From assembly GCF_009931435.1 (NCBI RefSeq), contig NZ_CP043414.1: a stretch of DNA of 64,000 nt; one strand, given 5' to 3'. Position 1 is the stretch's first letter. Each line of letters opens with the position of its first letter. This DNA is from Escherichia coli (GTDB taxonomy: Bacteria; Pseudomonadota; Gammaproteobacteria; Enterobacterales; Enterobacteriaceae). Position numbers and translations under genes: made by a program. Shown piece after piece: positions 4,710-60,086 of this stretch. The notes beneath the pieces are model-generated. The model saw only the letters and a list, made by a program, of their open reading frames with translations. It had not been told where the DNA came from and did not search any database.

Positions 4710-4718
4710 TGCCAGAAA

Positions 4719-4746: not shown

Positions 4747-4761
4747 CATGGATTGTATAAA

Positions 4762-5586: not shown

Positions 5587-5612
5587 TAAAAGCCAGCCTC
5601 GTCCACAAAATA

Positions 5613-5711
5613 CCGGATGAGGCGTGAGCGCCTTACCCGGCCTACAAAATCGTGCTAATACAAAATGTTGCATTATTGGCTGTAGGCCTGATAAGCGCTG
5701 CGCATCAGGCA
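5613..5711. repeat. REP/BIME element (two inverted REP units) between yaeF and nlpE
   Basis: CCGGATGAGGCGTGAGCGCCTTACCCGGCCTACA and TGTAGGCCTGATAAGCGCTGCGCATCAGGCA: canonical REP palindromes in opposite orientation. Confidence 0.7.
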
Positions 5712-8052: not shown

Positions 8053-8085
8053 GCCGGATGCGACGTTTGAAGCGTCTTATCCGGC
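8053..8085. repeat. REP element between rof and tilS (convergent gene ends)
   Basis: GCCGGATGCGACGTTTGAAGCGTCTTATCCGGC, canonical REP palindrome. Confidence 0.65.
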
Positions 8086-8091
8086 TTTCAC

Positions 8092-37297: not shown

Positions 37298-37310
37298 TGT
37301 CATTCTGTGG

Positions 37311-37345
37311 GCCGGGTAAAGTCTCACCCGGCTGTAATTTTGTAA
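37311..37345. terminator. Bidirectional terminator between convergent yaeH and cdaR
   Basis: Hairpin GCCGGGTaaagtctcACCCGGC flanked by T-rich (TGTAATTTTGT) sequence. Confidence 0.55.
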
Positions 37346-37350
37346 TCGAC

Positions 37351-38508: not shown

Positions 38509-38626
38509 AAGTCCTCCGTTATGCACGGCTTAGCATAAGGAAGTACGTAACGTACGGCATTGTGCAAATGCCCAAAGGATGAGGAAGATGTATGGAGTTG
38601 TGGTGAAGTTCACAGATTGTAAGGAG

Positions 38627-38656
38627 AACCCCTTCCCGTTTTCAGGAAGGGGTTGA
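38627..38656 (-). terminator. Putative terminator downstream of degP
   Basis: CCCCTTCCcgttttcaGGAAGGGG 8-bp stem between degP stop and cdaR start; weak U-tract. Confidence 0.5.
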
Positions 38657-38662
38657 GGAAGA

Positions 38663-40087
38663 TTACTGCATTAACAGATAGATGGTGCTGTCGCCGCGCT
38701 GAATATTCAGTGCCAGCACAGACGGTTTGCTGTCGAGAACTTTACGCAGTTCAGCGATGTTTTTCACTGCCTGCTGGTTCGCACCAATAATCACATCACC
38801 TTTCTTCAGGCCGATCTGCGCAGCTGGAGTGCCCGTTTTCACGTTGTTCACCACCACGCCCTGATCTTTGCCTTTGTTGCTCATCTCAGCGCCTTCAATG
38901 CCGTTGAAGATGGTGCTGGAATCAACCTGATTCTGGCTGCTCTGCTGCAGTTCCAGGTTCACGTTAACCTGCTTCCCGTCGCGCAGTAAGCCCAGGGTCA
39001 GTTTGCTGCCTACCGGCATAGTGCCCACCTGAGCACGCAGTGCGGCAAAGCTGCTGATTGGCTTACCGTTCAGTGAGGTGATCACATCACCCGCTTTAAT
39101 GCCCGCTTTCGCGGCGGAAGAATTCGGCAGAACCTGGCTTACGAAAGCACCGCGCTGGGCGTCAACTTTCATCGCTTTCGCCAGATCGGAGTTCAGCTCA
39201 GTCCCCATAATACCCAGCTCACCGCGTTTCACCTGGCCGTATTCCACCATCTGCGAGGTCAGGTTTTTCACCATGTTACTCGGGATAGCAAAACCGATAC
39301 CGATGTTGCCGCCGTCCGGTGCGAGGATCGCGGTGTTGATACCGATCAGTTCGCCGTTCAGGTTAACCAGCGCACCACCGGAGTTACCACGGTTGATCGC
39401 AGCATCGGTCTGGATGAAGTTTTCATAGTTTTCGGCATTCAGACCGCTACGCCCCAGCGCAGAGACAATCCCGGAAGTTACCGTCTCACCCAGACCAAAC
39501 GGGTTACCAATTGCTACGGTGTAATCACCCACGCGCAGTGCATCAGAATCCGCCATCTTAATTGCGGTCAGATTTTTCGGGTTCTGGATCTGGATCAGCG
39601 CGATATCAGAGCGCGGATCTTTGCCAACCATCTTCGCGTCGAACTTACGACCATCGCTCAGCTGGACTTTAATCACCGTCGCGTTATCAACAACGTGGTT
39701 GTTGGTGACGACATAGCCTTTATCGGCATCAATGATGACGCCGGAACCCAGCGCCATGAATTTCTGTTGCTGGCCGCCGCCATTACCGCCCTGGCCCCCC
39801 TGGCAGAACGGAGAGCTCTGGAACGGAGAACCTTCCTGGCAGAACGGAGAATCATCACCGAAGAACTGCTGGAAATTACGCGGCATACGCGGCGTATTAA
39901 CGGTTGTGCTACCTTCTACGTTAATGCTGACCACTGAAGGCATCACCTTTTCGAGCATCGGTGCAAGGCTTGGCATCTGCTGGGCTGTCGTTGCTGAAGA
40001 AGTCTCAGCCGCCGTTGCAGAGAGCGGAGATAACGCCAAACCTAAACTCAGAGCCAGTGCACTCAGTGCTAATGTGGTTTTTTTCAT
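38663..40087 (-). CDS. degP: Periplasmic serine endoprotease/chaperone DegP (HtrA)
   Basis: 474-aa ORF, signal peptide, GNSGGAL catalytic serine motif, Q/G-rich linker, two PDZ domains. Confidence 0.96.
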   Translation of the reverse strand: MKKTTLALSALALSLGLALSPLSATAAETSSATTAQQMPSLAPMLEKVMPSVVSINVEGSTTVNTPRMPRNFQQFFGDDSPFCQEGSPFQSSPFCQGGQGGNGGGQQQKFMALGSGVIIDADKGYVVTNNHVVDNATVIKVQLSDGRKFDAKMVGKDPRSDIALIQIQNPKNLTAIKMADSDALRVGDYTVAIGNPFGLGETVTSGIVSALGRSGLNAENYENFIQTDAAINRGNSGGALVNLNGELIGINTAILAPDGGNIGIGFAIPSNMVKNLTSQMVEYGQVKRGELGIMGTELNSDLAKAMKVDAQRGAFVSQVLPNSSAAKAGIKAGDVITSLNGKPISSFAALRAQVGTMPVGSKLTLGLLRDGKQVNVNLELQQSSQNQVDSSTIFNGIEGAEMSNKGKDQGVVVNNVKTGTPAAQIGLKKGDVIIGANQQAVKNIAELRKVLDSKPSVLALNIQRGDSTIYLLMQ

Positions 40088-40129
40088 GTATTTCAGTCTC
40101 GATTAACAGATAACGCAAAATTGCTGTGT

Positions 40130-40162
40130 TCTTCAGATTCGTTTTATAGCGCGAAGTTCCGA
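40130..40162 (-). promoter_or_regulatory. Sigma-E (RpoE) promoter of degP
   Basis: Minus strand GGAACTT (-35, 40154-40160) - 16 nt - TCTGA (-10, 40133-40137), matching sigma-E consensus and known degP promoter architecture. Confidence 0.7.
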
Positions 40163-40179
40163 ACTAAAGTTTCTGCAAA

Positions 40180-40207
40180 AGGTAAAAATTTATTGTTCGT
40201 CTTTACA
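40180..40207 (-). promoter_or_regulatory. Putative CpxR binding region upstream of degP promoter
   Basis: GTAAA pentamers on both strands (GGTAAAAATTTATTGTTCGTCTTTAC) at expected distance upstream of sigma-E promoter. Confidence 0.4.
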
Positions 40208-40216
40208 AAAGCCTGG

Positions 40217-41734
40217 TTATTGTTCTACGGCCATCAGACGTCGGTATTCATCCCAGGCATAGAGGTCGGTCATACCGCTGATATAATCCTGCAGCAGGCG
40301 GCAACGGTAATAATATTCCCATAGCGGAAACTCAGGAGAATCTGACGGTAATTTACTGACAGCCTCGACATAGGCCAGCCGATGGCGCGTCGAGAGTTTG
40401 TGGAATAAGCGCGATTCAATAGGGAAACGTTTCACCCGTTCTTTTTCTACCAGTTCAGTAAAGTCTGATAACGACAGGCTTAATAAAGGGCGATAAATCT
40501 CTAATAATCCGCTAATGACCCGATAGCCCTGCAATTCAAGCTGCTCGACATCTGGATGGCTAAACACATGTTTTACAGCGACATTTTTATATAGCTTTAG
40601 AAGATCGCTGCATTCGCTGGCATCTTCCAATAATGCATGATTAAACGTTCCGGCGAAAATCGCAGGCAGATTATCAATAAATCGTTGTGCCGCGTAGGGT
40701 ACCAGTTTATTTAGGGTGTTTACCCGTAAATACATAAAAAACTGATCTTCCGTACTGCGGCTTAAACTATTTGAGCGTGATTTTTCCCAGGCATTTTCAA
40801 CCACCAGCGAAAAGAGCGAACCTTTCTCATGCTGGCCCCACGCTTCGTGCAAATGATGATAAAGCTGCTCAACGCTGAATATTCTTTTCTCTACCGCATC
40901 TTCAAGATCTGCCACACAATAGGAGATGTCGTCGGCAGCTTCCATAATCCACGTTAATGGAAAACGACTGTAAAGCGCCAAATTAAGTTCTTTACGCAAC
41001 CGGGCAATATAGGCTTCTTCAGAAAGATAATAACCCGGCTTTTTCATTAAATAGTGATGTGTCTCAGGCGTTTCACCACGCCACCACGCCGGACGAGTAT
41101 ATTTTAAAATACCGCCAACCTGTGCCCAGGTGAGATTCATCCGCATCAATGTATGCACCAGACGAATGCCTTGTGCATTCCCCTCAAAATGACATAAGTC
41201 CTGACGTATTTTGCGCCGCAGCTCGTTAAGCGGTTCTTCCCCGTCCCGTAAACGTAGTGCTGCCACGCTGCAGCGATCGTCAGTCAGAGGCTGGCTTTCG
41301 GCATCAGCCGGATACAAACGCTGGCGAAACCAGTCATTTATCGCCGCTTCGCCAAAATGGCCAAACGGCGGATTGCCGATATCGTGCATCAGGCATGACA
41401 TCTCAACAATACTTTCAAAAGGGCCGGTCAGTTCATCCAGACCATACTCTTCCAGTAATTTAAGCTCTTTCAGACGGCTTAAAATTTCTTTGGCGATGTA
41501 GCGCCCCACCTGCTGGACTTCCATTGAATGGGTAAGACGCGTGCGCACGGCGGCATTTCGCTCCAGCGGAAAAACCTGGGTCTTTTGTTGCAGACGACGA
41601 ATTGCCGGAGAGTTGATAATACGCCCGCGATCGCTCTCAAAGATTCGCAGGATCTCATGTTCGGTTTTAACGCCCTGTGGTGAACGGTAACGACGATGCC
41701 AGTTTATTTTTTTTCGGAAATCAATCTGTGCCAT
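40217..41734 (-). CDS. dgt: dGTP triphosphohydrolase
   Basis: 505-aa ORF with HD-domain motifs ([11 protein letters not shown]); recognised Dgt. Confidence 0.95.
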
Positions 41735-41817
41735 GTCCTCTCCCGCGTGAGAAATACGCTTCCCCGTAAGCGCATGGTAAACTATGCCTTCAAATCGGGC
41801 TTATCGCGAGTAAATCT

Positions 41818-42516
41818 ATGAAAATCGGCATCATTGGTGCAATGGAAGAAGAAGTTACGCTGCTGCGTGACAAAATCGAAAACCGCCAAACTATCAGTCT
41901 GGGCGGTTGCGAAATCTATACCGGCCAACTGAATGGAACCGAAGTTGCGCTTCTGAAATCGGGCATCGGTAAAGTCGCTGCGGCACTGGGTGCAACTCTG
42001 CTGTTGGAACACTGCAAGCCAGATGTGATTATTAACACCGGTTCTGCCGGTGGCCTGGCGCCAACGCTGAAAGTGGGCGATATCGTTGTCTCGGACGAAG
42101 CACGTTATCACGACGCGGATGTCACGGCATTTGGTTACGAATACGGTCAGTTACCTGGCTGCCCGGCTGGCTTCAAAGCTGACGATAAACTGATCGCTGC
42201 CGCTGAGGCCTGCATTGCCGAACTGAATCTTAACGCTGTACGTGGCCTGATTGTCAGCGGCGACGCTTTCATCAACGGTTCTGTTGGCCTGGCGAAAATC
42301 CGCCACAACTTCCCGCAGGCCATTGCTGTAGAGATGGAAGCGACGGCAATCGCTCATGTCTGCCACAATTTTAACGTCCCGTTTGTTGTCGTACGCGCCA
42401 TCTCCGACGTGGCCGATCAACAGTCTCATCTTAGCTTCGATGAGTTCCTGGCTGTTGCTGCTAAACAGTCCAGCCTGATGGTTGAGTCACTGGTGCAGAA
42501 ACTGGCACATGGCTAA
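41818..42516 (+). CDS. mtnN: 5'-methylthioadenosine/S-adenosylhomocysteine nucleosidase
   Basis: 232-aa [27 protein letters not shown]...; recognised Mtn/Pfs. Confidence 0.95.
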
Positions 42517-43309
42517 GTCACTGTTCAGGGCGCTGGTCGCCCTGTCTTTTCTCGCCCCTCTGTGGCTCAACGCCGCACCGCGCGTCATCACGCTTTCACC
42601 CGCCAACACTGAACTTGCTTTTGCCGCCGGGATCACGCCGGTTGGGGTCAGCAGTTATTCCGACTACCCTCCACAAGCGCAAAAGATTGAGCAGGTTTCA
42701 ACCTGGCAGGGGATGAATCTCGAACGCATTGTGGCCCTTAAACCCGATCTGGTGATTGCCTGGCGTGGAGGTAATGCCGAGCGGCAGGTTGGCCAGTTAG
42801 CTTCGCTGGGAATAAAAGTGATGTGGGTCGATGCGACAAGCATTGAACAAATTGCCAATGCGTTACGTCAACTGGCCCCCTGGAGTCCACAACCAGACAA
42901 GGCCGAACAAGCCGCACAATCCCTGCTGGACCAGTACGCACAATTGAAAGCGCAATATGCTGATAAACCTAAAAAACGTGTTTTTCTGCAATTCGGCATT
43001 AATCCGCCATTTACCAGTGGAAAAGAGTCGATTCAAAACCAGGTACTCGAAGTTTGTGGCGGAGAAAACATCTTTAAAGACAGCCGGGTTCCCTGGCCGC
43101 AAGTTAGCCGCGAACAGGTGTTAGCACGCGCGCCACAGGCGATTGTCATTACAGGCGGACCGGACCAAATTCCTAAAATCAAACAATACTGGGGTGAACA
43201 GCTCAAAATTCCCGTTATTCCTCTCACGAGTGACTGGTTTGAACGTGCAAGCCCACGTATTATCCTCGCTGCACAACAGCTCTGTAATGCGCTTTCACAG
43301 GTAGATTAG
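42509..43309 (+). CDS. btuF: Vitamin B12-binding periplasmic protein BtuF
   Basis: 266 aa from [26 protein letters not shown]...; start overlaps mtn stop by 8 nt. Confidence 0.93.
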
Positions 43310-43346
43310 CGCCTGATCTTTTCAGGTGCTCAGTGGGGATTGAACA

Positions 43347-43970
43347 ATGCTCGTCTATTGGCTGGATATAGTCGGCACAGCGGTATTTGCCATCTCCGGC
43401 GTTTTGTTAGCCGGAAAATTGCGTATGGACCCTTTTGGTGTTCTGGTACTGGGCGTGGTTACCGCAGTAGGCGGCGGGACAATTCGCGACATGGCGCTGG
43501 ATCACGGCCCGGTCTTTTGGGTGAAAGATCCCACCGATCTGGTTGTTGCAATGGTGACCAGCATGCTGACGATCGTGCTGGTGCGCCAGCCAAGACGCTT
43601 ACCGAAATGGATGTTGCCGGTGCTGGATGCCGTTGGTCTGGCGGTGTTTGTCGGCATTGGCGTGAATAAAGCCTTTAATGCGGAAGCCGGTCCGTTAATC
43701 GCGGTTTGTATGGGCGTCATTACTGGCGTTGGCGGCGGGATCATTCGTGATGTACTGGCCCGCGAAATCCCCATGATTTTACGCACAGAAATCTACGCAA
43801 CGGCCTGTATTATCGGCGGTATTGTCCACGCTACGGCTTATTACACATTTTCCGTACCACTGGAAACAGCCAGTATGATGGGCATGGTCGTGACGCTATT
43901 GATTCGGCTGGCGGCTATTCGTTGGCATCTTAAGCTACCGACGTTTGCGCTGGATGAGAATGGGCGTTGA
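43347..43970 (+). CDS. yadS: UPF0126 inner-membrane protein YadS
   Basis: 207-aa hydrophobic ORF with two copies of a G-G-G-x-I-R-D motif (internal duplication). Confidence 0.88.
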   Translation: MLVYWLDIVGTAVFAISGVLLAGKLRMDPFGVLVLGVVTAVGGGTIRDMALDHGPVFWVKDPTDLVVAMVTSMLTIVLVRQPRRLPKWMLPVLDAVGLAVFVGIGVNKAFNAEAGPLIAVCMGVITGVGGGIIRDVLAREIPMILRTEIYATACIIGGIVHATAYYTFSVPLETASMMGMVVTLLIRLAAIRWHLKLPTFALDENGR

Positions 43971-43980
43971 AGAGAGAAGA

Positions 43981-44006
43981 TGTGCCGGATAGTTTATCCG
44001 GCACAT
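43981..44006. terminator. Bidirectional terminator between convergent yadS and erpA
   Basis: Perfect hairpin GTGCCGGATAgtttATCCGGCAC. Confidence 0.65.
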
Positions 44007-44016
44007 GAACAACAGA

Positions 44017-44361
44017 TTAGATGCTGAAGGAAGAACCGCAACCGCAGGTGCTTTTCGCGTTCGGGTTGGTCACGATGAAACGAGAACCTTCCAGACCTTC
44101 GGTATAGTCAACGGAACCGCCGACCAGATATTGCAGGCTCATCGGGTCAACCACCAGGCCAACGCCCTGTTTTTCGATGGTCATATCGCCTTCGTTCACC
44201 TGATCATCAAAGGTGAAACCATACTGGAAGCCGCTGCAACCGCCACCGGTGATATACACGCGTAATTTCAGATTCGGGTTATCTTCGTCAGCGATCAGGC
44301 TTTTAACTTTGTTGGCTGCTGCGTCGGTAAACTCCAGCGGCAGTGCTACGTCATCACTCAT
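44017..44361 (-). CDS. erpA: Iron-sulfur cluster insertion protein ErpA
   Basis: 114 aa from [20 protein letters not shown]..., C-terminal CGCGSSF A-type carrier motif; ORF track adds 11 codons upstream. Confidence 0.93.
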
Positions 44362-44442
44362 ATTTTGCTCCAAACGACATCGGCAATTGGGCAAATTCTA
44401 ACCCAATAATAATCGCCATTATCTAATACCCTGGTATTTCGT

Positions 44443-45882
<1,440 letters not shown>

Positions 45883-46088
45883 TCATACAAATAAGATGAC
45901 GGCATTTTACTCGCACGTTCCATGAAAATCCTTTGCAAAGCGTAATGTTTCAAATGTACAAAACTTTTATACTCTACGAAATCAGGATTGCACCAGCAGA
46001 AGCAACCTGACGTTTGACGAGTATTTAACTTGTTATGAATAAAATAGAATAGCAGCCATTCACTTTTTCTACGAATCAGGAACCCTCC

Positions 46089-47369
46089 ATGAGTAAGTCT
46101 GAAAATCTATACAGCGCAGCGCGCGAGCTGATCCCTGGCGGTGTGAACTCCCCTGTTCGCGCCTTTACCGGCGTGGGCGGCACTCCACTGTTTATCGAAA
46201 AAGCGGACGGCGCTTATCTGTACGATGTTGATGGCAAAGCCTATATCGATTATGTCGGTTCCTGGGGGCCGATGGTGCTGGGCCATAACCATCCGGCGAT
46301 CCGCAATGCCGTGATTGAAGCCGCCGAACGTGGTCTGAGCTTTGGCGCACCGACCGAAATGGAAGTGAAAATGGCGCAACTGGTGACCGAACTGGTGCCG
46401 ACGATGGATATGGTGCGCATGGTGAACTCCGGCACCGAAGCGACGATGAGCGCCATCCGCCTGGCCCGTGGTTTTACCGGTCGCGACAAAATCATTAAAT
46501 TCGAAGGTTGCTACCACGGTCACGCTGACTGTCTGCTGGTAAAAGCCGGTTCTGGCGCACTCACTTTAGGCCAGCCAAACTCGCCGGGCGTTCCGGCAGA
46601 TTTCGCCAAACATACATTAACCTGTACTTATAACGATCTGGCCTCTGTACGCGCCGCGTTTGAGCAATACCCGCAAGAGATTGCCTGTATTATTGTCGAG
46701 CCAGTAGCAGGCAACATGAACTGTGTTCCGCCGCTGCCAGAGTTCCTACCGGGTCTGCGCGCACTGTGCGACGAATTTGGCGCATTGCTGATCATCGATG
46801 AAGTGATGACCGGTTTCCGCGTGGCGCTGGCTGGCGCGCAGGATTATTACGACGTGGTGCCAGACCTCACCTGCCTGGGCAAAATCATCGGCGGTGGAAT
46901 GCCGGTAGGCGCATTCGGGGGTCGTCGTGATGTGATGGATGCGCTGGCCCCAACCGGTCCGGTCTATCAGGCGGGTACGCTTTCCGGTAACCCGATTGCG
47001 ATGGCAGCCGGTTTCGCCTGTCTGAATGAAGTCGCGCAGCCGGGCGTTCACGAGACGCTGGATGAGCTGACAACACGTCTGGCAGAAGGTCTGCTGGAAG
47101 CGGCAGAAGAAGCGGGAATTCCATTGGTCGTTAACCACGTTGGCGGCATGTTCGGTATTTTCTTTACCGACGCCGAGTCCGTGACGTGCTATCAGGATGT
47201 GATGGCCTGCGACGTCGAGCGCTTTAAGCGTTTCTTCCATATGATGCTGGATGAAGGTGTTTACCTGGCACCGTCAGCGTTTGAAGCGGGCTTTATGTCT
47301 GTGGCGCACAGCATGGAAGATATCAATAACACCATCGATGCTGCACGTCGGGTGTTTGCGAAGTTGTGA
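46089..47369 (+). CDS. hemL: Glutamate-1-semialdehyde 2,1-aminomutase
   Basis: 426-aa [29 protein letters not shown]...; recognised HemL. Confidence 0.96.
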
Positions 47370-47383
47370 TCCAGCATGGTTTG

Positions 47384-47468
47384 TCGGATGCGGCGTAAAC
47401 GCCTTATCCGACCTACAGATCAGGACCGTTTGTAGGCCCGATAAGACGCCACAGCGTCGCATCGGGCA
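47384..47468. repeat. BIME (pair of inverted REP units) between convergent hemL and fhuB
   Basis: GTCGGATGCGGCGTAAACGCCTTATCCGACCTACA and TGTAGGCCCGATAAGACGCCACAGCGTCGCATCGGGCA. Confidence 0.7.
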
Positions 47469-47526
47469 TCCGTTGCCGCGTAAAAGCTTTATCCATCCAG
47501 GAGTTAAGGGCCGTTATATGGAAAAA

Positions 47527-49509
47527 TTAACGGCTCTGCTTTCTCAACAAATAGATAAAATACGGCGCGCCGATAAAGGTCGACAGCAGCCCCGCTGGGA
47601 TCTGGAATGGAAACAGCACCATCCGCCCACACCAGTCAGCGAACACCAGCAACAATCCCCCTACCAGCGCCGAAATCACGATGTGCGGCATCGTCCGTCG
47701 AAAGCCCATCATCCGTGCGATATGCGGTGCCATCAGGCCAACAAAACTCAACGGCCCGATGGTCATTGTCGCGGTCGCCGTCAGGCAAGCCGCCAGCAGC
47801 AGTAGCGCAATTCGCGTCGGCGTCAGCGCCATTCCCACGGCTCGTGCGGTATCACCTCCCAGCGGTAAAATGGTCAGCCAGCGGCGGCACAGCGGGGTAA
47901 TCGCCAGCAAAATCACCATCACAATTCCGGTGCGCCAGACCTGCGCCTCGGTCGCGTTGTAGGTCGAACCGGAAATCCAGGTCAGCACTTGCGCCATTCG
48001 CGGGTCACCACTTGCCTGCAACATCATCAAAAGCATGGTGAACGCAGTACTTAAGGCCATCCCCGCCAGTAACATGCGGTGTGGGGAAAATCCACCGCGC
48101 CCGGCAGCGATCATAATGATCAACAGCGTCACCGCCGCGCCGAGACTGCCCGCGGGTAACAGCCAGCCAAAGGCATTACCCGGCACCAGAAACAGCATCA
48201 ACACCACACCAAACGCCGCGCCTGAACTAATCCCCAGCACTTCGGGGCTTGCCATCGGGTTTCCGGTCAGCCGCTGAATAATACAGCCCGCCACTGCCAG
48301 CATGATGCCCGCAAACAGTGCCGCCATAATTCGCGGCCAGCGCCAGGGCATTAAATCATCGAGCAGCGCCCCGCTCGCCCACGTCCAGCCGTGCGCATCA
48401 CGACCAAACGACAGCGCCACCACCACAGCAATTATCAGCAGCACACCGCCAGCAAGGGCAAACGCCAGCACATGTTGGCGTTCAGTCGCGACACGATCGT
48501 TGGCCTTCATATCCGGCGCACTGATGCTGCGTAAACGCGGCAGCAGCCACAGTAACAGCGGCGCACCTATCAACGCCGTCACCGAACCGGTAGAAACTTC
48601 CATCCACACGCGAGTCAGCCAGAGGATGATTTGATCGGAAAGCCAGAGGATCAGCGCACCAATCAGTGACGCCAGCAGCAGTCTTGGCAGCAGACGCCGC
48701 GCCCCCAGCATTTTTGCCAGCAGTGGCGCGAACAACCCGATAAAGCCGATAATCCCCACCGCGTTCACCAACAGAGCACTGATGACTATCGCCAGCGACA
48801 GCGCCGCCAGACGCGCGAGCGATAAGGCCAGCCCGAGATTACGCGCCACGCCATCATCAAGCCCCATCAGGGTTAATGGACGAAGTAGCAGTAACGTCAG
48901 CATCACGCCGCCCAGCAGCTGTGGCCATAAACGCTCAACGCCGCCCCAGTCGGTTTGCGTCAGCGTTCCGGTACTCCACAGGAACATGCTTTGCAGCTGG
49001 TCGTGATGGAAGATAACCAGTAGCTGATTAATTGCCCCACAATAAAGGCTCACCACCAGCCCCGCGAGGATCAGTGTTACCGGCGAAAGCCGTTTCCCCC
49101 ACGCGACGCCAAAGACAATTAAGCCAACAACGCAAGCCCCCGCCAATGCAGCAAACTGGCTCGCCATAGCACCAGGGATCGCCCAGAGCGTGGTGACGGT
49201 AATCCCCAGTTGCGCGCCTGTAGCAACGCCCAACGTCGTCGGCTCCGCCAGCGGGTTACGCAGCACTTGCTGAAATAGCACGCCCACCAGCCCCAGACCC
49301 GCGCCCACCAGCAGCGAAATCGCCAGACGCGGCAGCAAGCTGTAGTGAAAAATCATCTGCTCGATGACATCGATATCCGGCGACCAGGTGGCCTGCACCC
49401 ACTGGCTACGCGGCAGCGCCTGCGAGAAGTTCATCCAGGTTAGCATCGCTGCGGCAATCACCAGCAGCGCCAGCAATAACGCCGGGAAAAGCGCAATACG
49501 TTTACTCAC
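47527..49509 (-). CDS. fhuB: Ferric hydroxamate ABC transporter permease FhuB
   Basis: 660-aa ORF with duplicated permease halves; recognised FhuB. Confidence 0.95.
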   Translation of the reverse strand: MSKRIALFPALLLALLVIAAAMLTWMNFSQALPRSQWVQATWSPDIDVIEQMIFHYSLLPRLAISLLVGAGLGLVGVLFQQVLRNPLAEPTTLGVATGAQLGITVTTLWAIPGAMASQFAALAGACVVGLIVFGVAWGKRLSPVTLILAGLVVSLYCGAINQLLVIFHHDQLQSMFLWSTGTLTQTDWGGVERLWPQLLGGVMLTLLLLRPLTLMGLDDGVARNLGLALSLARLAALSLAIVISALLVNAVGIIGFIGLFAPLLAKMLGARRLLPRLLLASLIGALILWLSDQIILWLTRVWMEVSTGSVTALIGAPLLLWLLPRLRSISAPDMKANDRVATERQHVLAFALAGGVLLIIAVVVALSFGRDAHGWTWASGALLDDLMPWRWPRIMAALFAGIMLAVAGCIIQRLTGNPMASPEVLGISSGAAFGVVLMLFLVPGNAFGWLLPAGSLGAAVTLLIIMIAAGRGGFSPHRMLLAGMALSTAFTMLLMMLQASGDPRMAQVLTWISGSTYNATEAQVWRTGIVMVILLAITPLCRRWLTILPLGGDTARAVGMALTPTRIALLLLAACLTATATMTIGPLSFVGLMAPHIARMMGFRRTMPHIVISALVGGLLLVFADWCGRMVLFPFQIPAGLLSTFIGAPYFIYLLRKQSR

Positions 49510-50396
49510 GCTTTACCTCCAATAGCATTATCCAGAATACGCACAAAATGCATTGCCGAGAGCGTCGCACCATAAAACCAGACTGCGGGGACGCGCTGAA
49601 AGCGTCCGGCACGGACAAACGGCATGGCCTGCCACAGCGGGGTTGCCATTAGTGCGTCCATGTCTCTGCTGTTGTCGTGATCAAAACAGAGCACATCAAC
49701 GTCCTTATACGCTGCCAGACGATCGATACTGACGGCAGTACTGCCCCAGAAGTTGGTTTCTCCTTGCCAGGCATTTGGGATGCCGTACTCATCGAGAATT
49801 TCCTGGAACAGGCTGTTCGGGCCGAAGACCAGCATATGGCGCGGATCGATAAGTGTCGTCAGCAATAACGGGCGCGCACCACGCTTCACAAAGCGGGGTT
49901 TCATGCTGCGGATAAAGTCTTCATAGTGCGCTAAATGCGTTTCCGCTGCGCTTTGCAGGTTAAGTAAATCTGCCATTTCCGTCAGTGACTTACGCGCCAT
50001 CGCCAGCGGCTGTTTGCCGTCGCTGAAGTTAAATCCGCGCCCAGGCGCAATGCGTGCCAGCATTTCTGGTGAAGGGCCATACCCTGCCGACCAGACCATA
50101 AACGACGGTTTCATTTCGGTCAGCAGTTCAAGGTTAGGTTCTGTCCGCAAACCAACGTCAATCACTGAATCCGGCAATGGTGGCTCGCTGACCCACAGGC
50201 GATAGTTGATGGTATCCGCCACGCCGTAAGGTACGATGCCGAGCGCCAGCAGTAATTCCACCGGCAACCACTCCAGCGCCACAATACGATTGGGATCAAT
50301 AGCCGCCGCGCGGGCGGTATTCATCTGCCATAACAACGGAGAAAGCGCCATCGCTGTTAACAGTCGACGGCGCGTAATTAGAGGTAAGCTGCTCAT
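49506..50396 (-). CDS. fhuD: Ferric hydroxamate periplasmic binding protein FhuD
   Basis: 296 aa from ATG at 50396; overlaps fhuB start by 4 nt and fhuC stop by 1 nt (ATGA). Confidence 0.93.
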   Translation of the reverse strand: MSSLPLITRRRLLTAMALSPLLWQMNTARAAAIDPNRIVALEWLPVELLLALGIVPYGVADTINYRLWVSEPPLPDSVIDVGLRTEPNLELLTEMKPSFMVWSAGYGPSPEMLARIAPGRGFNFSDGKQPLAMARKSLTEMADLLNLQSAAETHLAHYEDFIRSMKPRFVKRGARPLLLTTLIDPRHMLVFGPNSLFQEILDEYGIPNAWQGETNFWGSTAVSIDRLAAYKDVDVLCFDHDNSRDMDALMATPLWQAMPFVRAGRFQRVPAVWFYGATLSAMHFVRILDNAIGGKA

Positions 50397-51193
50397 CAAT
50401 AAACAAAACTCACAGGTGCAGCACCCGCCGGATGCGGCAAAATACCCATCGGGATGCCATAAATCATTTCGAGGGTTTCGCCGCGCATAATTTCCGCAGG
50501 CGTTCCCTGAGCAATCATTTCACCGCCGCGCAGGGCGACCAGATAATCACAGTAACGCGCAGCCATATTGATATCGTGCAGCACGGCAATGACCGTCAGG
50601 CCACGCTCCTGACTTAAACGATGCACCAGCGCCAGCACATCAACCTGGTGGGCGATATCCAGCGCCGAGGTCGGTTCGTCGAGCAACAGACAACGGCTAT
50701 CCTGCGCCACCAGCATGGCGATCCACGCCCGTTGACGTTCGCCGCCAGAGAGGCTATCGACCAGCCGATGCGCCAGCGGTTTTAAGCCAACCAGCGAGAT
50801 AGCCTCTTCGACCTTTTCGCGATCTGCCGCGCCAAAGCGCCCCAGCGCGCCATGCCACGGGTAACGACCAATCGCCACCAGTTCACGCACCGTCATCCCT
50901 TCTGCCGGAGGAAGCTGCTGCGGCAAATAAGCCACTTTGCGAGCAAACGCTTTGCTGCTCCAGCTTTCCAGCGGCTGGGCATCAAGAAGAATCTCCCCTT
51001 CTGACGGTGGCTGATGGCGGCCCAACATTTTTAACAGCGTGGATTTACCAGAGCCGTTGTGACCAATCAGACCGGTCACTTTCCCGGCAGGAAAGGTTAA
51101 CGACAGCGGATGCAAAAGCGTGCGCCCGGGCACACGAAAGGAGATATTACGCAGTGCAAAAGTGGTATCGGAATGATTCGTGTATTCCTGCAT
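50396..51193 (-). CDS. fhuC: Ferric hydroxamate ABC transporter ATPase FhuC
   Basis: 265 aa from MQEYTNHSDTTFALRNISFRV..., Walker A GHNGSGKST; ORF track adds 14 codons upstream. Confidence 0.93.
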   Translation of the reverse strand: MQEYTNHSDTTFALRNISFRVPGRTLLHPLSLTFPAGKVTGLIGHNGSGKSTLLKMLGRHQPPSEGEILLDAQPLESWSSKAFARKVAYLPQQLPPAEGMTVRELVAIGRYPWHGALGRFGAADREKVEEAISLVGLKPLAHRLVDSLSGGERQRAWIAMLVAQDSRCLLLDEPTSALDIAHQVDVLALVHRLSQERGLTVIAVLHDINMAARYCDYLVALRGGEMIAQGTPAEIMRGETLEMIYGIPMGILPHPAGAAPVSFVY

Positions 51194-51243
51194 AACAGCC
51201 AACTTGTGAAACGGGCACGGAAATCCGTGCCCCAAAAGAGAAA

Positions 51244-53487
51244 TTAGAAACGGAAGGTTGCGGTTGCAACGACCTGACGTTCTGCGCCCCAGAAGCAGCC
51301 ATAGGTATTAAAGCAGCTGGCGACGTATTCACGATCGAACAGGTTGTTGACATGCAGCGCCACGTTGGAGCCAGCCATGCCGACCCGCGCCAGATCATAA
51401 CGCACTAACGCATCCACGACCGTATAACTTCCCACTTTAAAGGAGTTAGCCGGATCACCATAGCTGGAGCCAGTATAACGACCACCAGTACCCAGCGTCA
51501 GGCCAGAAAGCGGACCATCAAAGAAGGTGTAGTCAGCCCACAGCGAAGCCATATGTTTTGGCACCTGCGCAGGCGTATTGCCTTTATAGGTAGTGTCGGT
51601 GGTGTATTCTGCATCGGTGTAAGTATAAGAACCAACTACGTTAACACTCGCCGACAGCGCCGCTTTCGCTTCGATTTCTACGCCACGCGCGCGGATTTCA
51701 CCACCTTCAACCGAGAAGAAGGAACCCTCAGGGTCCGCCATCAGGTTGTTGGTTTTAGTGAGATTATACACAGCACCAGTAACCACAATTGGGCGATCTT
51801 CCGGTACATATTTCACGCCGACCTCATACTGCTTACCTTTAGACGGCGCAAAAATATTACCATCCTTCCCAACTTGTGAAGAAGGTTCAAACGATTCGCT
51901 ATAGCTGAAGTAAGGTGTTACACCATTATCAAACAGGTAGTTAACACCACCACGCCAGGTAAACTGTTTGTCATCACGTTTATCGGTCGTCCCTTCAACG
52001 CGGTTATGAGACTCTTGATCCGCCCAGTCATAACGACCGCCCAGGGTGACCAGCACTTTATCCCACTGCGCCTGATCCTGAACATAAACACCCGTTTGTT
52101 TCTGCTTATTCAGAATGCGGTAAGGGCCGGAGTTTGCCGGATCTTTCGCATTGAAGTCGAAATCGGTATTCACCGGATTGTACAGATCGAGCAGCGGTAC
52201 GGAGTCGTCGTAACCAAACCAGGCGTTGATGTCATTACGCATACGCATAAAGTCGACACCGGTCAGCAGAGTGTGGTCGATATCGCCAGTGGCAAACTTG
52301 CTCTGCAACTGGGTATCAACGGAGAAGTTTTGCAGCTTCTCATCATCAACGACGTATTTACGTGCCAGGTAGTGACCTTTATCGGCTGGCGCTAAAGCGG
52401 CACACTGTTTGCTGTAAGCATTCGCCGGATCGGAGCAGACGCCGTAACCATAAACGCTGTTTTGCGAGGTTTTGTTTTCAGCAAAGCGCAGGTTCTGACG
52501 CACAGTAAAGGTGTCGTTAAATTCGTGATCGAAGCTGTAGCCCACCATCTTCTCATTACGAGAATAGGTGTTGTTCTTCGCCCCTTCGTTAAAATCTGTC
52601 GGCAGACGCTTACCGTTCGGCAGCGGCTCAACGGTTCCCTCTTTCGGCAGCCAGCCGTAATAACCGGTTTCCGGCTCGTTCTGGAAGTAAGAAAGGAAGG
52701 TGAAATTGGTTTTATCATCCGGACGCCAGGTAAACGCTGGCGCAATGGCATAACGCTGCTCTTCCGCGCCCTTTTGCTGGGCATTGGCAGAGCGCGCCAG
52801 TCCGGTCAGACGATAAGAGTAAACGCCGTCATCATCCAGCGCATCGCTAAAGTCGAAACCGGTCTGGAACAGGCTGTCTGTGCCCGCTTTAAATTGGATT
52901 TCTTTCAGCGGTTCGGTGGTTGGGCGCTTGCTGACCATATTTAACAGGCCGCCAGGGCTACTTTTACCGTAAAGAACAGAAACAGGGCCACGCATAATTT
53001 CAGCGCGTTCCAGCATATACGGGTCAATAACTGCATCGTTATAGAAGTTGCCTTGCAACTTCAGACCATTCAGATAGTTATTCTGGCTTTGGCCTTCTGC
53101 TGCAAAACCACGAATAATCAAATGATCATAAGTGTTTGATGCACCACGCGTACCGACCGAAACGCCTGGCGTATAGCTAAGCGCTTCTTTTACTGACTTA
53201 GGCTGATGCAGCGCCATTTCTTCGGCAGTGACAACAGAAATTGACTGCGGCACTTTTTGAATCGGTGTATCGGTTTTGGTGCCGGTAGCGGACTGTCGCG
53301 CCGCAATAGTTGCAGCTGGCCCCCATGCGCTTTCTTGCGGCGCTGGTGCAGCGGTAACGGTGATAGTGTCTTCTTTCGGTTCAACCGCTGCCTGTGCATA
53401 AACAGACATGCCGCTAACCGCTGTGGCTACTACAACTGCGATTTTACGCAGTGAGTGTTTTGGCTGAGCAGTTTTGGAACGCGCCAT
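51244..53487 (-). CDS. fhuA: TonB-dependent ferrichrome outer-membrane receptor FhuA
   Basis: 747-aa ORF, signal peptide, TonB box (DTITV), C-terminal ...ATATFRF; recognised FhuA. Confidence 0.96.
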   Translation of the reverse strand: MARSKTAQPKHSLRKIAVVVATAVSGMSVYAQAAVEPKEDTITVTAAPAPQESAWGPAATIAARQSATGTKTDTPIQKVPQSISVVTAEEMALHQPKSVKEALSYTPGVSVGTRGASNTYDHLIIRGFAAEGQSQNNYLNGLKLQGNFYNDAVIDPYMLERAEIMRGPVSVLYGKSSPGGLLNMVSKRPTTEPLKEIQFKAGTDSLFQTGFDFSDALDDDGVYSYRLTGLARSANAQQKGAEEQRYAIAPAFTWRPDDKTNFTFLSYFQNEPETGYYGWLPKEGTVEPLPNGKRLPTDFNEGAKNNTYSRNEKMVGYSFDHEFNDTFTVRQNLRFAENKTSQNSVYGYGVCSDPANAYSKQCAALAPADKGHYLARKYVVDDEKLQNFSVDTQLQSKFATGDIDHTLLTGVDFMRMRNDINAWFGYDDSVPLLDLYNPVNTDFDFNAKDPANSGPYRILNKQKQTGVYVQDQAQWDKVLVTLGGRYDWADQESHNRVEGTTDKRDDKQFTWRGGVNYLFDNGVTPYFSYSESFEPSSQVGKDGNIFAPSKGKQYEVGVKYVPEDRPIVVTGAVYNLTKTNNLMADPEGSFFSVEGGEIRARGVEIEAKAALSASVNVVGSYTYTDAEYTTDTTYKGNTPAQVPKHMASLWADYTFFDGPLSGLTLGTGGRYTGSSYGDPANSFKVGSYTVVDALVRYDLARVGMAGSNVALHVNNLFDREYVASCFNTYGCFWGAERQVVATATFRF

Positions 53488-53509
53488 TGGTATATCTCTG
53501 ATGTAAAGT

Positions 53510-53545
53510 GAATGATAACGTAAACGAGAATGATTATTATAAAGA
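53510..53545 (-). promoter_or_regulatory. Fur box / iron-regulated promoter region of fhuA
   Basis: GAATGATAACGTAAACGAGAATGATTATTATAAAG: overlapping GATAAT/ATTATC hexamer arrays resembling Fur consensus, 20-60 nt upstream of fhuA start. Confidence 0.6.
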
Positions 53546-53665
53546 TGAGATAATATTCGAAACGCTGGCGGGTTCGCAAGCGGTACGCAATCTGAGCATT
53601 CCTGAGGGGTTAATAAACAATCAGATGAAAAGAAAGGGTTAATACTTTGGGTAGGATGTTATTTT

Positions 53666-53690
53666 ACCGGATGGCGACTCGCCATCCGGT
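53666..53690 (-). terminator. Strong inverted repeat downstream of mrcB (possible terminator; no U-tract)
   Basis: ACCGGATGGCGactCGCCATCCGGT, 11-bp perfect stem, 16 nt after mrcB stop. Confidence 0.4.
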
Positions 53691-53705
53691 ATGTCAGCTT
53701 AGACG

Positions 53706-56240
53706 TTAATTACTACCAAACATATCCTTGATCCAACCTGCTACGCCGTCACTGTCTTTCTGCTCTTGCTGAGCAGGTTGCTGTTGCGGCTGTTGCTGCG
53801 GCTGAGAAGACTGATCAAACGGATTGCCTGACGGTTGCTGCTGAATCTCACTCTGCTGGCACAGCGATTGCGGATCGCTGGTCCAGACCGGCAAGACACG
53901 CATGCCACCGCTGCAAACAAAGTTGCCGTCGTAGTCCACGCCCATATCTGCAATATCTTCTGGTGGAACAAGATTCAGCGGTGTTGGCGTCTGGTTAGCC
54001 AGATAACGCTGATAAATCGACATTGCCCCGCTGGCTCCATACAGTTTGGTCGGCTGGTTGTTATCACGGCCTACCCAGGTGATGGTCACCGTGCTGCCGT
54101 CAATGCCCGCAAACCAGGTATCTACGTTGTTGTTGGTAGTACCCGTTTTCCCTGCCAGATGCAGATTTGGATATTTCGCCCCAAGCTGACGTCCCGTACC
54201 GCGTTGTACTACCTGCTGCATGGTCCATAGTGTCAGATACGCCGCCTGAGCCGGAACAGCGCGTTCCGCCTGCGGGAAGCTCTGATACAGTACCTTGCCA
54301 TCTTCCGCGATTACCGAACGCAGCGCAGAAAGCGGTGCTCGGTTACCACCACTAGCGATGGTCTGGAACGCCTGCGCCACTTCAATTGGCGTTAAGTTCA
54401 ACGCCCCCAGCAGCATTGCCGGAACCGGATGCAGCTGATCTTTCGGTACGCCCAGTTTAATCCAGGTATCCGTAACCGCAGGCAGACCCAGCGCCATCCC
54501 CAGATTCACCGTCGGCACGTTCATCGAACGTGTCAACGCATCCACCAGCATCACTCTGCCACTTTCGCTATAACGACGGTCATCGTTCTGCGGTGACCAG
54601 ACCTGGCCATTCGGCTGACGCAGCGCGATTGGCGCATCGGCAATCCACGTGTTCAGGCGATAGATTTTCGGCTGGCTTAAGGCCGTCAGATAAGTCGCTG
54701 GTTTTGCAAGAGAACCAATCGAACGACGCGCCTGCATCGCACGGTTGTAACCCGCAAACTGCGGCTCAGAACCACCGACCATCGCACGAACTTCACCACT
54801 AAAGCGGTCGACGACCACAATCGCGGTTTCAAGATCGCTCAACTTACGCTGTTTCTTCAGTGCCGGAATGCCTTCCACGGCGGCTTTTTCTGCCGCGTCC
54901 TGGGCCACCGAGTCAAAGGTTGTGAAGATCTTCACGCCGGAGAGATCTTTTACCTTATCGCCCAGTTTTGCCTGCAACTCCTGACGCACCAGCTGCATAA
55001 AGGCTGGCTGTGGAGAGATTACCCCACCGCGCGGCTGAACGCCCAGCGGACGTGCACTCAACATGTCATAGAGCTCTTGATCAATAATCTGCTGTTGTTG
55101 CAGCAGACGCAGTACCAGATTACGTCGCTCCAGCGCCAGTTTCGGGTTACGCCACGGGTTATAGATCGACGCCCCTTTCACCATACCAACCAACAGCGCC
55201 TGCTGGTCGAGACTCAGCTCTTCTACCGGGCGACCAAAGTAGTACAGGCTCGCCAGCGGGAAACCGCGGATTTCGTTGTCGCCGCTCTGACCGAGATACA
55301 CCTCGTTCATATACAGCTCAAGAATGCGGTCTTTGCTGTAACGCGCATCCATAATCAGCGCCATGTAGGCTTCGTTAGCTTTACGCCAGTAAGAACGTTC
55401 GCTGGAGAGGAACAGGTTTTTCACCAACTGTTGCGTCAGCGTACTCGCTCCCTGCACCGTGCGTCCGGCGGTCAGGTTTGCCAGCACCGCTCGTCCGATG
55501 GAGTAGAGACTGATCCCATCATGCTCGTAGAAATGACGGTCTTCAGTCGCCAACAACGTATCCACCAGCAAATCCGGGAACCCACTGCGCGGCACAAACA
55601 GACGCTGCTCGCCGTTTGGTGAGGAGATCATGGTGATCAGGCGCGGATCAAGACGGAAGAAACCGAACTGACGGTTGTTCTCCATATTGACGATGGTCGC
55701 CAGATGATCGCCATCAAAGGTCAGACGTGCACGCACCTGCCCTTCTTTACTGTCCGGGAAATCAAACGGACGGCGGATCATTTCAATGCTGTTGGCCTGC
55801 ACGGTAAATTCGCCAGGACGGGTCATTTTCGACACCTGACGATACTGGGTCGCCTCCAGCAGTTTCACCATCTCGTTTTTGCTGATGGTCATGTCTGGCT
55901 CAAGGTTGACCATTCGGCCATAAACAGCCGCAGGCAATTGCCAGACTTTGCCATCAATACGGCTACGAATTTTTTGATCGAGATAAACGCCGTAAATGGC
56001 GATCAGCACGGCAAAAACGATAGCAAGTTTTAGCAGTAGCCATAGCCAGCCGCGTTTGCCACGAGGCTTACGCCCTTTGCCTTTGCCCTTACCTTTGCGC
56101 GGCATCGGTTCTTCATCCTCATAGTCATCATAATCGTCGTAATCATCGTCATCTTCATAACGACGACGGCTTACCTTTTGTTTGACCGGACGCGTCGGTT
56201 TCCCTTTGCGTCCAATTGGCTCGCGGTCATTCCCGGCCAT
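53706..56240 (-). CDS. mrcB: Penicillin-binding protein 1B (bifunctional transglycosylase/transpeptidase)
   Basis: 844 aa from [17 protein letters not shown]...; acidic/basic cytoplasmic tail, single TM, GT51 and transpeptidase domains. Confidence 0.95.
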
Positions 56241-56333
56241 GCTTTTTCTCCGCAATATTCAGGCGCAAAAGCCCGATTTTCTGTTCTTCTGTAACAAGAC
56301 AGAAGAAGATATCTCTCAAATTTACTTTGGTCT

Positions 56334-58763
56334 TCATGAATACTTTTTCGTCCGTCGCGTCGGTGCGGTATTTGCCGGATCATCCGGCCAGACGTGTTTG
56401 GGATAACGCCCTTTCATCTCTTTTTGCACCTCGCGATACGCACCTTTCCAGAAGGCGCTCAAATCTCGTGTGATTTGCAGCGGCCTTTGGGCAGGAGAAA
56501 GCAACTCCAGCACCAGCGGCACACGCCCCTGGGCGATCGTCGGATTGGTGGCCTCGCCAAACATCTCCTGCATTCTCACCGCCAGCGCGGGCGGGTTATC
56601 TTCATGGTAACGAATGGCGATCCGGCTCCCCGTCGGCACAGTGTAATGCGCAGGCAATTCACTATCCAGACGTTGCTGCATCCCCCAATCAAGTAATCCG
56701 CGTAGCGCCTGATAAATATCGAGTGATTTCAGGCCGCGTAGCGAATGTACGCCTGCCATATGCGGCAGTAGCCACGTTTCCAGCGTCGCCAACAAACTTG
56801 CATCATCAACCGCTGGCCAGTCATATTCCGGCAACCACTTTGCGGCGCATAACAAACGCAAGCGTAGCTGTTCCGCTTCCGCCGTCCAGTTGAGCACGCT
56901 TAAACCTTTATCACGAATGCCGTTAAGCATTGCCTGATGCAACTCGTCTTCCGAGGGTTTCGCCAGCGGCTGCACTTTCACCGTCAACTGACCGATTTGC
57001 AGCCGACGCCACGCTTTCAGCGTACCTTGCGCATCATCCCACTCCACAGTGTCAGACTGCTGTACCAACTGCGGACAGCGTTGTACTAATTCATCGATAT
57101 CGACCGGTAGCGCCAGTAAAATCCGCGCATCCGGCGAGGCGCTGCCCTGCAATAATAACGGTGCGATCAACCATTCGTGGCGGCTTAGCGCATCGTCGGC
57201 ATCGAGCATTGCCCCCATGCCGTTTGCCAGTTGATAGCGTCCATCTTGCCCACGGCGACGAGCAATGCGATCGGCATACGCCCCGGCAAGTAGCGGCGCG
57301 ATAAGAGAACTGTCTGCCTCACCGCCGCGTACGTTTAAACGTTTTAACAGTTGCTGGCTACGTTGCTGCCAGGCAGGTTGATTGCGCGAAAACGCCACAT
57401 CCAGATCGATATTGCCCATCCGTGGTGGCTCTTCGAGAATAGCGGCAATTTTTGCAGCGGTAGCAGCTTCGTCGTCGCTCCTTGCGCTCACCAGCATTGC
57501 CGCTAAACGCGGATCGTTACCCAGCGTCGCCATTTTCTGCCCTTTCGTGCTTAGCCGTTCACCGTCCATCGCCCCCAGCATCCGTAACAGGCGTTTCGCG
57601 GCCTGTAAATTCACGGCTGGCGGTTGATCCAGCCAGCTCATCTGCGTCGGATCGCTGCATCCCCATTGCAGTAATTCCATCAGCAAACCGGAGAGATCGC
57701 TTTGTAAGATTTCCGGTTCACTTTGCGCGGAGGCGCGTTCTGCTTGTTCTTTGGCGATTAAATGTAAACAGATCCCCGGCTCCAGACGTCCGGCACGCCC
57801 GGCGCGTTGCGTCATTGATGCCTGGCTAATGCGTTGGGTAATCAGCCGCGTTAGCCCCGTGCGCGGATCAAAGCGCGCCACACGTTCCTGAGCACAATCC
57901 ACCACCAGACGAATACCTTCGATGGTTAAACTGGTTTCAGCAATATTGGTTGCCAGCACCACTTTGCGCATCCCTTCTGGTGCCGGAAGGATCGCTTTTC
58001 GCTGATCGTTCAGCGACAACGCGCCATACAGCGGGCAGAGCAACACATCACTACCGATGCGCGAAGCTAGTTGTTCCTGAACGCGCTGAATTTCTCCGAC
58101 ACCAGGTAAAAATAACAGTAATGAGCCGCTTTCCTGATGCAGCAATTCGGCGGTGGCAACCGCCACGGCTTCATCAAAACGCTGATGAGCGAGCAGCGGT
58201 AAATATCGGCGTTCAACCGGAAATGAGCGCCCTTCTGAGATGACGACGGGCGCTTCTGGCAGCATCTGCTGCAAGCGGTCATTGTCCAGCGTAGCCGACA
58301 TAATCAGTAGTTTAAGGTCATCACGCAGACCTTGTTGCACATCGAGTAACAGCGCCAACGCCAGATCCGCCTGCAAGCTGCGCTCATGAAACTCATCGAG
58401 GATCACCAATCCAACGCCGCTCAGTTCAGGGTCACGCTGGATCATGCGCGTCAACACGCCTTCGGTAACTACTTCCAGGCGAGTATTTGGCCCGACACAG
58501 TTTTGCGCGCGCATCCGGTAGCCTACCGTATCACCTGTTTTTTCGTTAAGCAGTTCCGCCAGTCGTTGCGCAACGTTACGCGCCGCCAGGCGACGCGGCT
58601 CCAGCAGGATAATTTTTCCGTTAATGCCGGGATGCGCCAGCAGTTGCAGCGGCAGCCAGGTTGATTTCCCGGCCCCGGTCGGCGCACTTAATAACACCTG
58701 CGGTGCACCATCGAGGGCAGCAAGTAACTCAGGTAAGACGGCGGCAACGGGCAACGACGACAC
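56334..58763 (-). CDS. hrpB: ATP-dependent RNA helicase HrpB (DEAH family)
   Basis: 809 codons from GTG at 58763; Walker A GAGKST and DEFH motif; ORF track 824-aa form starts 15 codons upstream. Confidence 0.9.
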   Translation of the reverse strand: MSSLPVAAVLPELLAALDGAPQVLLSAPTGAGKSTWLPLQLLAHPGINGKIILLEPRRLAARNVAQRLAELLNEKTGDTVGYRMRAQNCVGPNTRLEVVTEGVLTRMIQRDPELSGVGLVILDEFHERSLQADLALALLLDVQQGLRDDLKLLIMSATLDNDRLQQMLPEAPVVISEGRSFPVERRYLPLLAHQRFDEAVAVATAELLHQESGSLLLFLPGVGEIQRVQEQLASRIGSDVLLCPLYGALSLNDQRKAILPAPEGMRKVVLATNIAETSLTIEGIRLVVDCAQERVARFDPRTGLTRLITQRISQASMTQRAGRAGRLEPGICLHLIAKEQAERASAQSEPEILQSDLSGLLMELLQWGCSDPTQMSWLDQPPAVNLQAAKRLLRMLGAMDGERLSTKGQKMATLGNDPRLAAMLVSARSDDEAATAAKIAAILEEPPRMGNIDLDVAFSRNQPAWQQRSQQLLKRLNVRGGEADSSLIAPLLAGAYADRIARRRGQDGRYQLANGMGAMLDADDALSRHEWLIAPLLLQGSASPDARILLALPVDIDELVQRCPQLVQQSDTVEWDDAQGTLKAWRRLQIGQLTVKVQPLAKPSEDELHQAMLNGIRDKGLSVLNWTAEAEQLRLRLLCAAKWLPEYDWPAVDDASLLATLETWLLPHMAGVHSLRGLKSLDIYQALRGLLDWGMQQRLDSELPAHYTVPTGSRIAIRYHEDNPPALAVRMQEMFGEATNPTIAQGRVPLVLELLSPAQRPLQITRDLSAFWKGAYREVQKEMKGRYPKHVWPDDPANTAPTRRTKKYS

Positions 58764-58836: not shown

Positions 58837-60086
<1,250 letters not shown>

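Follow-up and report, generated by a model that had tools for sequence, protein, structure and literature searches.

Short, GC-rich, palindromic repeats are dispersed between the genes of Escherichia coli and include both the REP/BIME and the BoxC elements. The REP unit is an imperfect palindrome of 35–40 nt with the consensus GCCGGATG.../GCCTGATG... ...CTTATCCGGCCTAC. For the BoxC elements, which have reportedly also been treated by Bachellier (1990s) and by Hoyne and Maher (2000), we know of no cellular function that has been demonstrated. BoxC and PIT are former names of the element now called TMECO (Holder et al. 2015, PMC4666352), the number of which varies strongly by strain (29 in 55989, 1 in the B2 strain IHE3034); its sites are unusually variable, and its palindromic pairs are often reduced to a stem-loop. 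The published properties of these elements are the formation of hairpins, triplexes and G-quadruplexes in vitro and a raised local sequence variability; the intrastrand triplex and the G-quadruplex are based on CD and NMR data obtained in vitro, and footprinting in vivo gave no support for a stable triplex (PMC4666352). Table 1 of Holder et al. 2015 gives TMECO #1 at 164547–164580 (type B, + strand) and TMECO #2 at 164631–164597 (type A, − strand), and the same two elements are listed as HPGQ no. 5 and 6 between hrpB and mrcB by Kaplan et al. 2016 (PMC5100583).

BoxC repeats in the hrpB–mrcB spacer

The window, i.e. the whole 64-kb stretch of E. coli DNA analysed, runs as the reverse complement of the K-12 map. 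The start ATG of mrcB is found at 56240–56238 (minus strand) and the hrpB stop codon TGA at 56336–56334, leaving a spacer of 93 bp (Table 1); in NC_000913 the two genes are separated by 195 bp (end of hrpB, 164534; start of mrcB, 164730), i.e. 102 bp more. The first-pass annotation of the window had estimated the spacer to be about 100 bp shorter than in K-12, which direct comparison with MG1655 confirmed, and the 9-bp inverted repeat that it saw retained there is located at 56284–56292/56299–56307, with a 6-nt loop.

Table 1. Positions in the window of the features of the hrpB–mrcB and yaeH–cdaR spacers
Feature	Position	Strand	Basis
hrpB–mrcB intergenic spacer, 93-bp empty-site allele without BoxC repeat	56241..56333	−	coordinates and allele alignment
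Approximate site of the ~100-bp BoxC A+B inverted pair of K-12 and ~61% of E. coli	56332..56333	.	alignment, K-12 sequence, Holder 2015 Table 1
Variable 14-nt stub between hrpB stop and core, homologous to the mrcB-side flank of the K-12 BoxC pair	56320..56333	−	allele alignment
79-nt core conserved across Enterobacteriaceae	56241..56319	−	from TTGAGAGAT(A/T)TCTTCTT to mrcB Shine-Dalgarno (GGAG) and ATG
Proposed sigma-70 promoter of mrcB, TTGAGA-17-TGTTAC (TGTAAC in K-12)	56291..56319	−	genomic SELEX list
Hairpin HP1, 9-bp stem TTCTTCTGT/ACAGAAGAA, 6-nt loop	56284..56307	−	fold and covariation
Putative hairpin HP2 (UCGGGC/GCCUGA)	56259..56276	−	fold; sequence conserved, only A/G-U variation
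yaeH–cdaR convergent spacer, 53-bp allele, not homologous to the 88-bp K-12 allele	37298..37350	.	stop codons and alignment
Terminator-like hairpin after yaeH, GGCCGGGT-8 nt-ACCCGGCT then GTAATTTTGT	37310..37333	+	consensus scan; single copy in window

Alignment of the window spacer with the K-12, O157, B2-type and intermediate alleles demonstrated that K-12 has one extra block, positioned between the hrpB stop codon and ...AAATTTTGAGAG, which in gene sense reads GGTTGGTTTTCT-CCCTCTCCCTGTGGGAGAGGGCCGGGGTGAGGGC-ATCAGCGCGCACGTTC-ACCCTCACCCTAACCCTCTCCCTCAAGGGAGAGGG-GACCGATCGAGCAC. The defining BoxC/TMECO motif CCCTCNCCC-N3-6-GGGNGAGGG-N3-GGGNGAGGG occurs twice in this block, on opposite strands, and the two copies represent a type A (TTA loop) and a type B (CCG loop) element in inverted orientation, the coordinates of which are those of TMECO #1 and #2 of Holder 2015. 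The 102-bp shorter spacer of the window is thus explained by the absence of the inverted BoxC pair of K-12, and a motif search of the entire 64-kb window found no BoxC motif. The K-12 insert belongs to a dispersed intergenic family with tens of copies, in which type A and type B elements often form inverted pairs; members were located at 59,455 places in 5,331 E. coli genomes, the median number per genome being 11 and the highest 26. As single-stranded DNA the insert folds into one long hairpin (−33.7 kcal/mol, z −5.5). An Rfam search of the K-12 spacer, the K-12 yaeH–cdaR region and the O145 locus returned only chance miRNA-like matches on the BoxC hairpin. Inverted A+B pairs like the one absent from the window are present at four other K-12 sites, and both the absence of a pair from one strain to another and its collapse to a plain hairpin have already been described (Holder 2015); this locus does not differ in kind from the known system.

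The boundary of the insertion is not clean, since the allele alignment revealed small indels in the flanks and no target duplication. Empty-site alleles terminate hrpB with TGA and BoxC-bearing alleles with TAA, indicating that the boundary abuts or overlaps the stop codon; due to these differences in stop codon and flanks the site of the repeat is ambiguous by a few nucleotides. The stub listed in Table 1 is lacking in Citrobacter, in which the hrpB stop codon lies 2 nt before TTGAGA.

The missing DNA had been attributed to REP presence/absence in the first-pass annotation. That the hrpB–mrcB difference is a polymorphism of a small dispersed extragenic repeat proved correct, but the family is BoxC and not REP. 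According to the REP reading, K-12 would have a BIME between hrpB and mrcB and a single REP between yaeH and cdaR, both missing in the window. The differences of about 100 and 35 bp do match the sizes of BIME and REP units, both loci are located between genes, true REPs are found at both sites in other genera (the two spacers are filled by REPs in Citrobacter, Superficieibacter, Enterobacter and others), and REP pairs occur elsewhere in the window. However, local alignment of the 110-nt K-12 insert with the Y- and Z-type REP consensus was no better than that of shuffled sequences (p = 0.33 and 0.53), and for insert and window spacer together p ranged from 0.33 to 0.95, with no match to the consensus. 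The copy numbers are likewise not those of REPs, which number hundreds per genome: the insert family amounts to tens, and each yaeH–cdaR allele is found once per genome. Moreover, the two yaeH–cdaR alleles cannot be aligned with each other. Since the K-12 insert is made up of two BoxC elements without REP similarity, the K-12 sequence itself already refutes the REP reading, to which we give practically no credence.

Genuine BIME-like REP pairs were observed in the window at 47383–47468 (directly downstream of hemL), at about 5612–5710 and at about 8053–8090. The lineage therefore has REPs, though not at the two spacers considered here. A plausible but wrong label is thus corrected: the repeat concerned between hrpB and mrcB is BoxC and not REP. 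Neither of the two short spacers is unusual, each being an allele that roughly one in three E. coli has.

The yaeH–cdaR spacer

In the window the stop codon of yaeH ends at 37297 and that of cdaR occupies 37351–37353, enclosing a spacer of 53 bp, as compared with 88 bp in K-12 (183621–183708). This 35-bp difference from MG1655 is as the first-pass annotation had stated; its proposal of a REP indel failed, because the spacers are unalignable, both alleles are single-copy and the K-12 allele has no REP. No alignment at all was obtained between the stop codons of the K-12 and window spacers, and the difference is, judging from the two sequences, not an indel but the exchange of the entire convergent spacer for unrelated DNA. 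Both alleles are common: the 53-bp form was found in 1,783 genomes (33%) and the 88-bp form in 3,566 (66%), each at one place per genome.

The hairpin of the window allele has 8 pairs, 6 of them GC, and is followed by the tail GTAATTTTGT, thus matching the pattern of an intrinsic terminator. The arms of this hairpin are similar to a Citrobacter/Enterobacter-type REP in shortened form (10-nt match, p about 0.001 before multiple testing); the only REP-like fragment at this locus (GGCCGGGTAA...ACCCGGC) is found in the shorter, window allele. In the K-12 allele the hairpin is a different one, the stem of which is capped by a TTCG loop and is kept by compensatory changes in the copy of strain RMDEC465. 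Each allele would accordingly supply a stem-loop of its own, plausibly the 3′-end or terminator hairpin of yaeH. In other genera the spacer contains REPs, BoxC elements or plain terminators. The possibility that the K-12 allele is a decayed BoxC element, suggested by a resemblance over 25 nt (p about 0.005, uncorrected for 10 tests), is regarded as unproven, the RMDEC465 copy showing a simple TTCG-loop stem.

RMDEC465, a close relative of the window, has an 88-bp allele of the K-12 type, the identity of which to the K-12 sequence is only 83%. The presence of this allele in a strain so akin to the window implies that the dimorphism is old. A third allele, of 114 bp, was seen in strain E06; its start is like the window hairpin.

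Alleles, outgroups and the lineage of the window

Four states of the hrpB–mrcB spacer were seen, namely empty, with the full BoxC pair, collapsed and IS-bearing. The empty 93-bp site of the window, also present in 2013C-4282 and F1140, was found in 1,884 of the 5,426 complete E. coli genomes (34.7%); B2 strains are among these, and examples are IHE3034, LF82 and an ST131 strain. The full pair (195 bp; K-12, O157:H7) is represented by about 3,300 records at ≥95% identity, roughly 61%. The collapsed allele (131 bp; 2013C-3342), detected in 2 of 40 evenly sampled genomes, lacks the 64 bp between two CCCTCTCCC direct repeats, so that a plain hairpin is left. Finally, in about 14 genomes, exemplified by O145:H28 RM13516, the 1.4-kb IS110-family element ISEc20 is inserted within the BoxC pair. 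The remaining roughly 4–5% of the genomes fit the collapsed and IS-bearing forms taken together. In RM13516 the annotated ISEc20 (locus positions 3485–4932) splits the pair between GATGCCCTC and ACCCC, and the mrcB-proximal BoxC copy has a 12-bp internal slippage deletion. The complete ISEc20 junction is confined to the approximately 14 genomes of O145:H28 type; other ISEc20 copies share 4–14 nt of the flank, which hints at similarity of the ISEc20 targets.

This polymorphism is ordinary and has already been documented in the literature, the conserved mrcB-proximal core being the only mildly new item at the locus. What is added here is the allele frequencies in 5,426 genomes, the landing site shared by several genera and the IS110-family insertion in the pair. 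Spacer lengths around BoxC sites should be read as lineage markers and not as anomalies.

Outgroup loci were collected by a genome scan with HemL, encoded midway between the two spacers, each locus of 21 kb spanning both of them. At least 80 Enterobacterales loci were among the matches listed; neither Salmonella nor any Escherichia species, such as E. albertii or E. fergusonii, was among these matches, and the polarity of the changes rests on Citrobacter and on the distribution within E. coli. The Citrobacter hrpB–mrcB spacer has 80 bp and no repeat, and in Cedecea and Buttiauxella noackiae nothing is inserted either. Lelliottia, Enterobacter cloacae, Leclercia and Phytobacter have a single BoxC element, oriented opposite to the hrpB-proximal copy of K-12, and Superficieibacter and Enterobacter sp. 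ENT03 have REPs. In all the genera compared, every insertion, whether a REP or a BoxC in one orientation or the other, is located upstream of TTGAGA, between the hrpB stop codon and the core. The spacer of Pseudocitrobacter faecalis, with 379 bp, holds two tandem BoxC A+B composites and one collapsed hairpin.

The opposite orientation of BoxC in other genera points to independent insertions. Together with the empty sequence common to the window lineage and B2, the outgroup pattern favours independent insertions at a common landing site, the BoxC pair having been gained within E. coli. K-12 and most strains of the phylogroup A/B1/E type carry the A+B composite between the hrpB stop codon and the 79-nt core, and in the window, the B2 strains and Citrobacter the landing site is unoccupied. 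Most likely, some of the E. coli lineages would have gained the composite; it would later have collapsed to the 131-bp allele by slippage involving both CCCTCTCCC repeats, and the IS110-family insertion would have followed in O145:H28.

The short allele could alternatively be a secondary deletion, the BoxC pair being ancestral in Escherichia and having disappeared from B2 and from the window lineage. TMECO sites have indeed been linked to deletions (Holder 2015, PMC4666352), and an allele with a partial deletion exists. Between Pseudocitrobacter and K-12 the composite shows 94% identity, as compared with only 78–82% for the adjacent coding DNA of hrpB and mrcB, which suggests, as judged from these identities, a recent spread or concerted evolution. 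With BoxC elements at the same site in several genera and this near-identical composite in Pseudocitrobacter, an old occupant that was repeatedly lost has to be considered. A deletion is nevertheless improbable, since Citrobacter is without the repeat, the BoxC elements of other genera have the opposite orientation, and the window lineage and B2 share the same empty sequence even though the identity of the former to most E. coli does not exceed 96.5%; B2 genomes, moreover, are almost devoid of TMECO anywhere (Holder 2015, PMC4666352). Gain of the composite within E. coli thus remains the preferred history.

The 18 kb between the two spacers (38000–56000) are 98.0–98.7% identical to five complete genomes and 97.7–97.9% identical to three more, and at most 96.5% identical to all other E. 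coli among the 5,426 complete genomes compared. The eight closest genomes include R32_14_1F, MFDS1022581, 2013C-4282 and RMDEC465. This identity profile places the window in a rare, divergent branch of E. coli, and we infer that the branch may be cryptic clade I. It is very probable that the window represents such a divergent lineage, carrying at both loci common alleles other than those of K-12: an empty BoxC site between hrpB and mrcB and a replaced spacer between yaeH and cdaR. In two of these relatives, 2013C-4282 and WL297, the match to the window falls into two pieces and covers a stretch of the record about 5.2 kb longer than the query. The annotation of this stretch includes a fimbrial usher gene, and the extra DNA is absent from the window.

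The conserved core upstream of mrcB and the small ORF

The 79-nt core was aligned in 29 sequences from about 25 genera, in which 36 columns are invariant and the distance from TTGAGA to ATG is 77–86 nt. Its order is the same throughout: the invariant TTGAGAGAT(A/T)TCTTCTT is followed by a covarying hairpin, the conserved GAGAATC, a second hairpin, GGAG and ATG. The stem of the first hairpin, HP1, is the inverted repeat already noticed in the window. Five of its nine pairs, in the inner stem, show compensatory changes among the 29 enterobacterial sequences, and the helix is 92.3% paired. Taken as a whole, HP1 and HP2 are 93.3% paired, as against 49–56% in slid controls, with 27 compensatory cells and a covariation score reached by none of 500 shuffles. 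As the HP1 stem has been kept by compensatory changes, the inverted repeat is not a chance feature. HP2 shows no compensatory change, and its structure is accordingly regarded as putative. Neither hairpin had a match in Rfam.

A constitutive sigma-70 promoter, TTGAGA-17-TGTAAC, has been assigned to hrpB>mrcB by genomic SELEX (Shimada et al. 2014, PMC3946193). Both of its hexamers lie within the core, and its −35 element coincides with the hexamer that opens the invariant block. The −35 hexamer is itself invariant; the −10 hexamer falls in the HP1 loop and is not conserved outside Escherichia. A −10 element that is unconserved and placed in the variable loop of a covarying hairpin means that a plain promoter does not explain the invariant 17-mer and the hairpin. 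A consensus scan of the hrpB–mrcB spacer for promoters (9 of 12 matches) and terminators found neither, and a search of the literature for a transcription start site or leader of mrcB gave nothing beyond the SELEX promoter list. Judging from its conservation, the core would comprise the promoter and leader of mrcB, including the covarying hairpin, and perhaps also the 3′ end of hrpB. More speculatively, the invariant 17-mer, the covarying 9-bp hairpin and the second conserved hairpin, present in at least 28 enterobacterial species at a constant distance from the start codon, might act in cis, as a regulatory element not described so far, on the expression of PBP1b or on hrpB 3′-end formation, the few nucleotides before it serving as a shared safe landing pad for BoxC, REP and IS110-type elements; we put this forward tentatively, as a possibility with the odds somewhat against it. 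The regulation of PBP1b is poorly understood, and an mrcB leader with a covarying hairpin is possibly worth a simple reporter experiment.

The spacer could also be thought to encode a small protein, the difference in length then being a difference in protein. A 2024 paper reported D8B36_18480, a 68-aa "conserved small protein" between hrpB and mrcB with an overexpression phenotype (PMC10869245). In K-12, a 68-aa ORF starting with TTG (positions 238–444 of the extracted locus) spans the BoxC pair and the core and is probably D8B36_18480. The window has a 36-aa ORF starting with ATG (56227–56337, minus strand), the C-terminal 30 residues of which are identical to those of the K-12 ORF, and the 102-bp difference is in frame. 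Against a coding role, the N-terminal half of the K-12 ORF is merely translated BoxC DNA, the hairpin covaries at the level of RNA or DNA, and stop codons or frameshifts interrupt or shift the frame in about half of the 29 sequences, with nucleotides being conserved at all codon positions alike. With the frame broken in about half of the genera, the conservation of the core is not due to coding; an upstream ORF or small protein across the spacer was consequently rejected on frame conservation, and a protein difference is considered very unlikely. Most of the small ORF described for the MG1655 spacer is thus translated repeat DNA, which many strains do not have. The 36-aa ORF of the window overlaps the hrpB stop codon (tcATGa) and ends in codons 4–5 of mrcB.
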